A DNA stretch of 32,000 nucleotides from Candidatus Saccharimonadota bacterium. Its GTDB lineage: Archaea; Nanohalarchaeota; Nanosalinia; Nanosalinales; Nanosalinaceae. The stretch's first letter is position 1, and each line of letters starts with the position of its first letter. The notes under the pieces were generated by a model. That model had not been told where the DNA came from, made no database searches, and saw only the letters and a list, made by a program, of their open reading frames with translations. Location of the stretch: positions 690,001 to 722,000 of the forward strand of contig NZ_CP107255.1 in assembly GCF_029232205.1 (NCBI RefSeq). Reading direction: 5' to 3'. Of the stretch, positions 720 to 6,864 are shown piece after piece. The position numbers were made by a program, and so were the translations under genes.

Positions 720-3700
720 ATGGAGCTGAGACACTTCTTCTACTTTATAACCATTTTATTTGTCTTCAGCACCTTGTCTACAGCTTCCGGCCCCCAGTCC
801 TACTACAGCTTTAATTCAGAGCAGCTAAATATTCAAGATACCTACAGCAACAATAATATTCAAGGCCTTGCTTCCAGCTTACGTTTTGATGGAGAAGATG
901 ACCACATACAGGTTCCTTACTCTGAAAGCATGGATATAAAAGATGAACTGACTATCGCCGGATGGGTTTACCTAGAAAAACACCCTGATCAAACCTCCAA
1001 CAACGATTACCGACTTATATTCGGCAGATCAAACGGCTACGATCCATACGGCCTCTTACTGGAGGAAAGCTCCACAGGCCTTGTAGGAAGCACATTCTTC
1101 AACGGCAGCAGACAGTACGTAGCAGGAGGCATAGATCCAGCTGAAATGGTAGATCAATGGAGCCACGTCGCATTTACGTACGATGCAAATACTGGAAACG
1201 GAACAATCTACCTTAACGGATCGATACTAGGCACTGGAATATACGAAACAGGCCAGTTCGATACCTCGACCAAAAACATCCAGTTCACAGAACCAGGCGG
1301 GCCTAATGGACACACCTGGAACGGAAAAATGTCGGACATGCGACTTTACAACCGGTCCCTCTCCACAACCGAGATAAACCAGCTTTACGGAGGAAAAAAT
1401 GTCGAGCAGGACCTGGTTTCCTACTGGCCCATGTTTAACAAAAAAGGGAAAGTATACGACGTAACCGGGCCTAATGACGGTTTCTGGCAGTCATCTTCAA
1501 CCTCGGGGATACTCAACTTTGATGGTTTTGTGAATGGCTCTTTCAAGGACGGGTCGGAGAAAAATAATCACGGCCTGTACACAGACATGATAGAAGGATC
1601 TTTCAGCGGCGCAAACGACGGGACGCTGGATGGGGGACAGAGAACAGGTAGCTTTGATGGCAAAGCCGTAGAATTCAATGGGGCCGGAGATATCGACGTG
1701 CCGAACAGTGCCTCGCTGAATTTCAAGGATACAGGCTTCAGTATTTCAGCCTGGTTCAAAACAAACAGCACAAGCATGACTGGATCCTGCTGCCTTTCAC
1801 ACACTATGATTGAGAAGTACGGTAGCGGCCAGGGATACATGCTAGGCATAGCCTACGGAGATACAATCTACGCATCATTTTTCGATGATACTGGGGGAAA
1901 ATTTGATCCAAGAGCCACACCTCCTTCAGACTTCAAAGACAACAAATGGCATCATGTCGTAGGTGTGAACAACGGTACACACGCCATGCTATACTATGAT
2001 GGTAGTTTACTTGATACACAGACAGCGAAAAAGACCGACTACAGCAACTCGGACAGTTTAAGAATAGGGAGCGGTTTCAACGGAACAATAGACAACGTCA
2101 AAATCTACGATAATGCCTTGGACAAATACCAGGTTAAAGACCTATACAAAGACAGAAGAGAGTTATATGCACAGCAAAAAGCTGAATACAAATTTGAGGG
2201 ATCCGGGACATCAATTAAAGACACATCCATGATTCAACCTGGCGTATCTGGAGAATCTCTCAGTATCGACGGCGTAAACGACCAAGTCACATTCCCAGAG
2301 AACAATGAAATAAACAGATCAATGAACTCGGAAAACTGGACTATCAGCTTCTTCTTCAAACCAAGAGAGTCACTTATCGGAGGAGGCTGGTCTGACTTTA
2401 TCAACATGCCAACCAAAAACAGCGGAATGTTCCGAATAGAACACAACAAAAACCTGGGAGATGGAATTATAGCCTACTGGTCAATAGACGATGGCACAAA
2501 TGGCCACAACCCTGCTGACTACATATGCAGCTTCCGAAACCTGGATGAAACAAAATGGTATCATCTAGCAGTTACACTGGAAAGCTCAAATAAAGGAGCA
2601 AAATGCTTTGTAGACGGCAAACTCAGCGACGAAGAATCGGCCTCCGCAATGGCAGACCACGAAAAAATCAAGGGAAGCATCAACATTCTCTCAGACACCG
2701 GAAAAAGATACAATATAGACTCATTCAAGATCTTCAACACGACAATGAACAGCTCGGAAATACAGAAACTGAGCTATGGCCGAGAACCTTCACAAATTGA
2801 ACTTAGAGACTTCTCCTTTGACTCCATGCAAAACGACACAGTATACGACACGTCCATGCTGGGACAGGGGAAGAATAGAAAAGGCCTCCACCTGAAAGAA
2901 GGCAATGGATACGCATACCTGCCCGATAGCTCAAGTCTATCGCCAAGCGACGAAGTAACAGTTGCTGCATGGATTAAACAGACAGGCACAGCCTCAAGCT
3001 CGTACCAGAGAATAACAGATAAAGGATCAGGCCTTACTTACTGGGTTCACGATGGAAATGGAGATACTTGCGTAAGGCTCTCAGCCACGGAATCAGGTGG
3101 GAGCGCGCAGACCTGTTTCAATACCAACATTCAGAAAGACAGATGGTACCATCTGGCATTCAGCTACGATTCCGACACCAACGAGACCAAACTTTACCTT
3201 AACGGCTCTCTATTTGGAACAAGCACATACTACACAGGCCCGATGTCAGGAAGCGGGTCAGCACTATCAATAGGAAACTCTGGAGGTTCAAGGCCCTGGA
3301 TTGGAAAAATAGATGAGCTGAAAATTGAAAACGAGGAACTAACTGAAGAAGAAATATCAGACCTTTACAGAAGCGAGAAAGCAGGCCTTGCACAGGAAAC
3401 TTCCGACCCCGACCCCTCAGACTTCAAATTCGAGAACGGGATCTTCGGCACAGACAGCCTGAGAATTAACTCAGTTGATTCAAGAGTCGAAGGAGAGATA
3501 TTAAGGCCCGATAAAGGATTTACTGCCTCTTTCTGGGTGTGGAACAGCAACAACTGGGATGAAAACAGGACAATCTGGAAAGACAAAAACAATAGAATAA
3601 GGCTGAAATCATACAGAGAACGTGCAGTACTCGAATGGACGGATGGAAACGACATCTATGGACTGAAAAGCCATAAACTTGCATCAGAGAAATGGTATCG

Positions 3701-6864: not shown

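Follow-up and report, generated by a model that had tools for sequence, protein, structure and literature searches.

Several large proteins with LamG modules have been described in nanohaloarchaea. According to La Cono et al. (2020, PMC7443923), every nanohaloarchaeal genome encodes organism-specific lectin-like proteins that have LamG/ConA-like domains and many N-glycosylation sites, and these proteins are predicted to serve as a system for host-specific attachment. The SPEARE giants of Candidatus (Ca.) Nanohaloarchaeum antarcticus and Ca. Nanopetramus SG9 contain extracytoplasmic LamG adhesion regions and have been proposed to interact with the host (Hamm et al. 2019, PMC6642349); these proteins are mostly 3,300-8,500 amino acids (aa) in length (short members of 655-717 aa are listed), are anchored in the membrane and contain domains of the serine protease, toxin-like and restriction-endonuclease types. 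In TafC, the tip subunit of haloarchaeal Tat-fimbriae, a LamG domain has been modelled as an outward-facing adhesin (PMC11821415), and in 2026 a patescibacterial epibiont was reported to carry Fibrinogen_C and ConA domains on its surface giants (PMC13059738). Here, a 32,000-nucleotide stretch of contig NZ_CP107255.1 (positions 690,001 to 722,000; hereafter the window) was analysed, in which three genes encode the multi-LamG proteins p1, p2 and p3, and in which the third LamG module of p2 is interrupted by a fibrinogen-/X-type-lectin-like domain.

Among the genes of the window are those for a TFIIB of archaeal origin and for an archaeal-type S-adenosylmethionine (AdoMet) synthetase. The TFIIB shares 83% identity with its counterpart in Ca. 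Nanohaloarchaea archaeon M3_22, and the remaining matches are all from nanohaloarchaeal or uncultured archaeal metagenome-assembled genomes. The source is a nanohaloarchaeon and hence a small episymbiotic archaeon, as the initial annotation of this DNA had supposed. The GC content of windows within the locus is 43-48%, compared with a mean of 43.9% for the window as a whole. Both neighbouring open reading frames (ORFs) of that annotation are present exactly as listed below, together with a third LamG gene that it had not noticed.

720..3941, + strand: p1, ORF of 1073 aa with a signal-like N-terminus and five LamG modules (Pfam Laminin_G_3)
4069..6864, + strand: p2, ORF of 931 aa with a signal-like N-terminus and three LamG modules, the third interrupted by a fibrinogen-like domain
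17187..19406, - strand: p3, ORF of 739 aa for a further multi-LamG protein (Pfam Laminin_G_3 2.3e-61, 3 stretches)

A comparison with the described systems reveals both similarities and differences. Like the proteins of La Cono et al. (PMC7443923), p1 and p2 are nanohaloarchaeal, large, putatively secreted, LamG/ConA-like, sequon-bearing and lineage-specific, whereas the nested domain of p2 and the p2/p3 paralogue pair are absent from that generic description. No paper linking a nanohaloarchaeal protein to a fibrinogen-like domain was found within the library searched. Attachment through multi-LamG proteins is an existing hypothesis, and the nested domain is the new element. With SPEARE (PMC6642349), p1 and p2 share a nanohaloarchaeal origin and the LamG regions, but at 1073 and 931 aa they contain no protease, endonuclease or toxin-like domain in Pfam and NCBIfam searches and no second hydrophobic segment, and they fall outside the SPEARE definition. 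The TafC model of NCBIfam (NF052521) is the best named match for p1 and p3; however, the scores of 94.3 bits for p1, 16.9 bits for p2 and 68.6 bits for p3 fall far below the equivalog cutoff of 410. The alignment is limited to the LamG half (model positions 192-364), no TafA-like pilin domain is present, and the twin-arginine of p2 is not conserved in its orthologue.

In p2, the two parts of the third LamG module flank the additional domain as follows.

5605..5796, + strand: N-terminal part of p2 LamG module 3, aa 513-576, ending in the strand FTVSAW
5797..6513, + strand: nested fibrinogen-/X-type-lectin-like domain, aa 577-815, 239 residues
6514..6864, + strand: C-terminal part of p2 LamG module 3, aa 816-931, with the closing motif GEVDEYRIYNRSLSDSEIQKL

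When aa 505-576 were joined to aa 816-931 in a splice test, one continuous Laminin_G_3 match was obtained, with 55.7 bits over hidden Markov model (HMM) positions 12-151; without the N-terminal piece, the score is 43.2 bits over HMM positions 41-151. The BLAST alignment of p2 with p3 ends exactly at p2 aa 575 (166 bits), and after removal of the insert a single high-scoring segment pair extends over p3 aa 68-738 (181 bits, E 2e-52). Additionally, LamG is split at the same HMM position, just past the T..AW strand, in four further proteins. In one of these (P0002, on a JGI metagenome contig named ProkHueca), the insert is 69% identical to that of p2; a second (P0033) is 960 aa long and has the same three-LamG layout as p2; a third (P0076) has the same insertion site; and the fourth, a DUF2341-containing protein on contig SWCC01000028.1 (L010), has this insertion site in a bacterial-looking gene context. 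The splice test, the p3 alignment and the shared insertion site agree, and p2 is therefore a protein of the p3 type to which a domain of 239 residues has been added.

These results modify the earlier description of p1 and p2 as a tandem pair composed almost entirely of LamG, with five and three modules. The five modules of p1 are found, whereas in p2 aa 577-815 (26% of the protein) are fibrinogen-like. The domains of p1 and p2 are only 23-30% identical, which rules out a recent tandem duplication, and the true paralogue of p2 is p3, located 10 kb away. Tandem arrays of p2-like genes recur: two related metagenome contigs (L011 870-4767 and L009 1-2354) each have a p2-like gene that contains the nested domain and, immediately after it, a second p2-like gene; these second genes are 61% and 28% identical to the N-terminal part of p2. 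In the window, the gene after p2 encodes an unrelated 299-aa protein.

The nested domain matches the NCBIfam model NF040941 (GGGWT_bact, 'fibrinogen-like YCDxxxxGGGW domain') with 59.4 bits on p2 aa 582-623, for which the cutoff is 30, and Pfam Fibrinogen_C (PF00147) with 27.5 bits on aa 589-636, for which the gathering score is 22; the latter match covers only model positions 10-59 of 221. A weak match to COLFI is also reported by Pfam. The insert contains the motifs SC, YCDM..GGGWT, VRWGW.WNNE.D.C.S.D, G.G and CC and six cysteines. Residues conserved in the family include C583, G596, Y598, C611-D-M, G618-G-W-T, F633, Y635, W640, K660 and G733, and further along the sequence R746, G748, N752, E754, D756, C758, S760, D762, G766, G768, G781 and C786. 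Among the cysteines, conservation in the family is 95% for C583, 98% for C611, 76% for C758 and 62% for C786. Six cysteines at family-conserved positions would suit an extracellular, disulfide-bonded domain, and, by motif reading, an acidic/Asn-rich loop followed by a Cys and a later Cys may resemble the Ca2+ loop and disulfide of the P subdomains of fibrinogen-related domains (FReDs). For the 193-residue C-terminal part of the insert, no Pfam family is matched at E ≤ 1. The C-terminal ~190 residues (window 5940-6513, p2 aa 624-815) lie outside any Pfam or NCBIfam model and are a candidate new family.

An AlphaFold2 model of the insert alone, built on an alignment of 39 sequences, has a pLDDT of 90.7 and a pTM of 0.89. 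In a Foldseek search of the PDB, the top matches are X-type lectins, which bind glycans, namely lamprey LSVL (7e1e), human intelectin-1 (4wmq/6usc) and Xenopus XEEL (4wmo), with E values of ~1e-7, a probability of 1.0 and TM-scores of ~0.5; the next are angiopoietin, ficolin, FGL1 and fibrinogen domains, with TM-scores of 0.3-0.43. X-type lectins also rank first in a profile search of PDB sequences (6e-16 to 4e-14), in which only ~47 N-terminal residues are aligned, and the phmmer and profile alignments to 4wmq, 4wmo and 7e1e span p2 aa 579-627. The insert and the X-type lectins, which are its best structural and PDB profile matches, have in common the N-terminal SC..G.Y...YCDM..GGGWT subdomain. 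However, the sequence likeness is confined to these N-terminal residues, and intelectins are stand-alone animal proteins, whereas the p2 domain is nested in LamG. The insert also scores above the cutoffs of both GGGWT_bact and Fibrinogen_C and appears to share the fold class of the FReDs, but it differs from classical FReDs in its TM-scores, in that no match to the whole PF00147 model including the P subdomain is found, and in having C-terminal motifs of its own.

The closest overall relatives of the insert are viral, represented by phrog_1325 and by cyanophage proteins such as P-HM2 E3SSV2 and that of Synechococcus phage S-CAM8. The phrog_1325 profile matches insert residues 9-200 over profile positions 100-299 of 334 (E 1.1e-20, 75.3 bits), and the best match in a viral structure library is the uncharacterised Prochlorococcus phage P-HM2 protein E3SSV2 (TM-score 0.78, rmsd 2.8 A). 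The VRWGW..NNE part of the domain is encoded on 56 IMG/VR contigs. In an 889-aa viral protein from IMG/VR (L037 1559-4225), the C-terminal end (aa 642-867) is a phrog_1325 domain, and several segments before it match tail-fibre PHROGs. This viral protein gives functional context to phrog_1325, which is listed as 'unknown function' in PHROGs. In the viral proteins, the domain lies at the C-terminal end of fibres, whereas the p2 copy is internal, within a LamG module of a cellular protein. Literature on GGGWT/fibrinogen-like domains and on cyanophage fibrinogen tail fibres was not found in the library searched.

An exhaustive phmmer search of 1.84 billion cluster representatives with the insert yields 2370 proteins with E ≤ 1e-3, of which 469 reach E ≤ 1e-10, and the top 150 proteins contain 102 near-full-length copies of the domain. 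A word-index homologue search with the insert gave no match; among GTDB representative genomes, no p2 relatives were found by pattern search, and a metagenome scan recovered one distant locus. Among the homologues, one (P0014) has an archaeal class-III pilin N-terminus and another (P0017) a bacterial N-methyl pilin motif. LamG is combined with the domain in 19 of 151 proteins, and DUF2341, Ig-like and EGF domains are further partners. As it is found on pilin-like proteins and at viral fibre tips, the domain recurs at the business end of cell-surface recognition devices. A wider proposal is that the nested LamG/fibrinogen-like unit is a mobile composite recognition head that occurs across episymbiotic archaea, candidate phyla radiation-like bacteria and phage tail fibres, that it represents a prokaryotic and viral sister lineage of the animal X-type/ficolin lectins, and that the insert of p2 recognises a specific surface layer (S-layer) glycan of the host and sets host range; this proposal is doubtful at present.

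The LamG modules were delimited with Pfam Laminin_G_3 (PF13385; gathering score 27.6 bits), and their boundaries were taken from a custom LamG HMM, which contributes to each of the following rows.

840..1394, + strand: p1 LamG module 1, aa 41-225 (Pfam 78.2 bits)
1659..2153, + strand: p1 LamG module 2, aa 314-478 (Pfam 81.2 bits)
2220..2780, + strand: p1 LamG module 3, aa 501-687 (Pfam 51.2 bits; Toxin_R_bind_N 36.6 bits)
2841..3374, + strand: p1 LamG module 4, aa 708-885 (Pfam 99.6 bits)
3435..3932, + strand: p1 LamG module 5, aa 906-1071 (Pfam 41.7 bits)
4261..4782, + strand: p2 LamG module 1, aa 65-238 (Pfam 77.5 bits)
5089..5583, + strand: p2 LamG module 2, divergent, aa 341-505 (custom LamG HMM E 8.7e-10; collinear with p3 module 2)

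Profile searches therefore find LamG in both proteins, as had been predicted, with Pfam whole-protein matches of E 2.6e-92 in 5 stretches for p1 and E 1e-38 in 3 stretches for p2, and with scores of 42-100 bits for the p1 modules scanned singly. All five p1 modules, p2 module 1 (77.5 bits) and the spliced p2 module 3 (55.7 bits) exceed the gathering score. The 'three' stretches of Pfam in p2 count both halves of the one split module; p2 module 2, scanned singly, has no Pfam match and is recognised only through its paralogy with p3 and the custom HMM.

The Toxin_R_bind_N family is also matched by p1 (1.5e-18 for the whole protein; 26 bits on module 2 and 37 bits on module 3). This match and the lack of a detected anchor would be expected if the proteins were released effectors of a toxin-delivery type, with LamG modules that bind receptors as in clostridial neurotoxins and with host damage, not attachment, as the result. 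However, Toxin_R_bind_N and LamG have the same jelly-roll fold, Laminin_G_3 scores higher on the same residues, and searches of Pfam and NCBIfam detect no pore-forming or translocation domain and no catalytic family in p1 or p2. A role in host damage is thus highly improbable.

The closing motif of the LamG modules, with a built-in N-glycosylation sequon, had been described as strikingly conserved. The motif is present in eight of eight modules, three of which match it closely (SDMRLYNRSLS, TNVRVYNRTLS and DEYRIYNRSLS), while the other five are looser. Among 120 such motifs from distantly related multi-LamG proteins, 47 have NRA as their central triplet, 22 have NRS and 7 have NRT, and the same motif is present in bacterial proteins. 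The closing motif is the general C-terminal signature of PF13385 (G.iDevriYnraLs..ei..ly type). As NRS and NRT are frequent among the distant homologues, the 'built-in sequon' is a common family variant, and an NRS/NRT motif specific to this locus is ruled out. Similarly, the 'very many' N-x-S/T sites amount to 18 in p1, against 13.4±3.2 in composition-preserving shuffles (p ~0.1), and 16 in p2, against 11.0±2.9 (p ~0.07); no enrichment over composition is seen. The sequon and the closing motif therefore carry no weight as arguments that the proteins are adhesins.

The N-termini of p1 and p2 consist of a short charged head, 14-15 hydrophobic residues and then small residues.

720..791, + strand: signal-peptide-like N-terminus of p1, MELRHFFYFITILFVFSTLSTAS, followed after the inferred cleavage site by G; the only hydrophobic window of the protein

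In p2, the corresponding segment is MKTDRRNWKTFLAVIFIAFSAVA, followed by LS. Strongly hydrophobic 19-residue windows (Kyte-Doolittle ~1.6) occur only at the N-termini of both proteins. The hydrophobic character is kept in orthologues, and the p1 orthologue of a related strain (Logan SRR28149497, L012) reads MELRYYLCFILILSVFSSFSSAS. These features agree with the initial annotation, which had proposed signal-like N-termini and neither a membrane anchor nor a catalytic domain, and they suggest that p1 and p2 are exported. The N-terminus of p2, TDRRNWKTFL, contains an RR that is also found in P0033 (TDRRTIITLL), but the 86%-identical orthologue of p2 begins VRLKIFF, has a stop codon just upstream and lacks the RR. 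Export of p2 by the Tat pathway is therefore unlikely, and a Sec signal is more likely. The ORF of p3 opens at a GTG, giving VKCISILPNIGYM..., and its signal-like segment starts after Met13; the real start is therefore probably the ATG at ~19370. By pattern reading, A/T-rich TATA-like boxes lie upstream of both genes: TTTTAAT 22-28 nt before the p1 ATG, and AAATTTTTAA 42-53 nt upstream of the p2 ATG.

The gene order AdoMet synthetase-p1-p2 is kept in the related strain L012. Between the window and this strain, AdoMet synthetase is 93% identical at the amino acid level, with a ratio of nonsynonymous to synonymous substitution rates (dN/dS) of 0.059; the corresponding values are 82% and 0.060 for p1 (both proteins are 1073 aa) and 86% and 0.079 for p2 (first 445 aa). 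The p1 and p2 genes are real genes under purifying selection; the domain anatomy, nested architecture, modelled fold class and family distribution are likewise established here. Two orthologues of p1 are known, one identical to it and the other 82% identical, and the remaining relatives of p1, which include 'LamG domain-containing proteins' of Marsarchaeota, Nanoarchaeota, Woesearchaeota and Patescibacteria, among others, are at most 35% identical over partial alignments. The nearest relatives of p2 are 86% identical (same lineage), followed by partial matches at 56-61% and a full-length match at 31%. As p1 relatives beyond strain level are at most 35% identical, the proteins are lineage-specific.

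A second Logan contig, SRR26436575_746 (L008), is 99.975% identical to window positions 1-7944 and carries the p2 protein unchanged. This contig comes from an independent assembly of the same strain, and its sole differences from the window are two +1 indels in homopolymers (window 472 and 790; L008 1400 and 1719). The indel in an A-run truncates AdoMet synthetase, and that in a C5/C6 run lies in the signal-peptide codons of p1, so that the public gene call begins at Met71 (1003 aa). Phase variation of p1 at the C5/C6 run is unlikely, as the housekeeping AdoMet synthetase is also broken in L008; an assembly error is likelier because both ORFs are intact in the window.

A rival reading is that these proteins lack a specific ligand and are structural components (S-layer or sheath) of the nanohaloarchaeon's own envelope. 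Purifying selection is consistent with this reading. The proteins are exported (by prediction), repetitive, rich in Ser, Thr, Asn and Asp and sequon-bearing, and envelope-type neighbours are present, for example the DUF11/CARDB protein at 8020..9396. However, no membrane or cell-wall anchor is detected, the low identity of p1 to relatives other than its strain orthologues marks it as lineage-specific and not as a conserved scaffold, and the three divergent paralogues consist of adhesin-type domains, one of them with a domain otherwise found at tail-fibre tips. A purely structural role is thus quite unlikely.

The reading that is preferred, to which an about even chance is given, is that p1, p2 and p3 are non-enzymatic, multivalent lectin-like proteins that are exported and bind the glycosylated envelope of the haloarchaeal host, with p2 bearing an extra recognition head. 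From the sequence and the predicted fold, we infer export, glycan binding and host attachment. Each protein would be made with a Sec-type N-terminal signal or anchor and would display a string of ConA-like jelly-roll (LamG) modules outside the cell. Tight binding could arise from the sum of many weak contacts with carbohydrates or glycoproteins, for which the glycosylated envelope of a haloarchaeal host cell would be the likeliest target. The extra head of p2 would be a fibrinogen-/intelectin-like domain with disulfides that interrupts the third LamG module at a surface loop. Domains of this type occur at the distal tip of phage tail fibres and, in other archaea and in bacteria, fused to type IV pilin-like N-termini. 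The initial annotation had likewise proposed an adhesin. Its proposal is supported by the nanohaloarchaeal source, by the published hypothesis and by the tail-fibre/pilin-type insert, whereas the arguments that it drew from a LamG-only composition, from the sequon and from the closing motif do not hold.

Several observations weigh against host attachment. The C-terminal two-thirds of the insert has no PDB sequence match at E ≤ 10 in the profile search, and the TM-score of ~0.5 is moderate, so that a conserved Ca2+ or sugar site would be putative. No C-terminal transmembrane segment or lipobox Cys that could account for retention on the cell was found in p1 or p2. Additionally, sequence variability between strains, which had been suggested as a check, was compared: neither hypervariability nor diversifying selection is seen (dN/dS 0.06-0.08, from one strain pair with dS near saturation), and diversifying selection is frequent in host-recognition proteins.

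A complete sugar phosphotransferase system (PTS) is encoded 3-8 kb downstream, at 9555-15203. Such a system is not usual in a reduced genome of the DPANN type, and haloarchaea may have been its donors.

9555-10184: HAD hydrolase
10221-10604: EIIB, lactose/cellobiose type
10605-11597, - strand: PfkB kinase
11606-12715: EIIC
12802-13269: EIIA-like ORF (GIGIPH motif only)
13266-13532: HPr-like ORF (GLHARPA motif only)
13536-15203: Enzyme I

The proximity of the PTS and the PfkB kinase raises the question of whether the LamG and fibrinogen-like modules work in the manner of carbohydrate-binding modules and hold environmental or host-released polysaccharide at the surface for feeding, and not a host cell. 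Cultured nanohaloarchaea live on polysaccharides (PMC7443923), and LamG_3 belongs to the ConA-like lectin/glucanase superfamily, both of which are consistent with polysaccharide capture. However, the PTS genes form separate units, partly on the opposite strand, with a tRNA and other genes lying between, and neither the three LamG proteins nor the products of adjacent genes have a glycoside hydrolase domain that Pfam detects. Moreover, the relatives of the insert occur on pilins and phage tail-fibre tips, which are devices for cell-surface recognition. Capture of polysaccharide for feeding is therefore judged unlikely, although less so than a structural envelope role.

Other features of the window include the following.

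6933-7832, + strand: envelope-type protein of 299 aa directly after p2, with two hydrophobic helices at its N-terminus and a charged tail that resembles a coiled coil; no family matched
7892-7965: tRNA-Tyr (ARAGORN and Rfam)
8020-9396, - strand: envelope-type protein of 458 aa, signal-like at its N-terminus and with one internal transmembrane segment; matches to CARDB/DUF11 are weak
20191-20265, - strand: tRNA-Pro(UGG) (ARAGORN; no Rfam tRNA match at gathering threshold)

About ten ORFs of 126-381 aa, located at 15270-17190, 20343-20867, 22044-23226 and 24884-28064, have no Pfam match at E ≤ 1e-3; many family-less ORFs are typical of DPANN genomes.

Multi-LamG proteins are standing but poorly defined candidates for the molecules with which DPANN archaea, including nanohaloarchaea, recognise and hold their hosts. 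As p2 is a natural 'plus-insert' version of p3, a comparison of the two proteins could show which module gives binding specificity. Defining the insert family would improve the annotation of many adhesin-like and phage receptor-binding proteins, and this family links the folds of animal innate-immune lectins with pilus adhesins and the tips of phage tail fibres.

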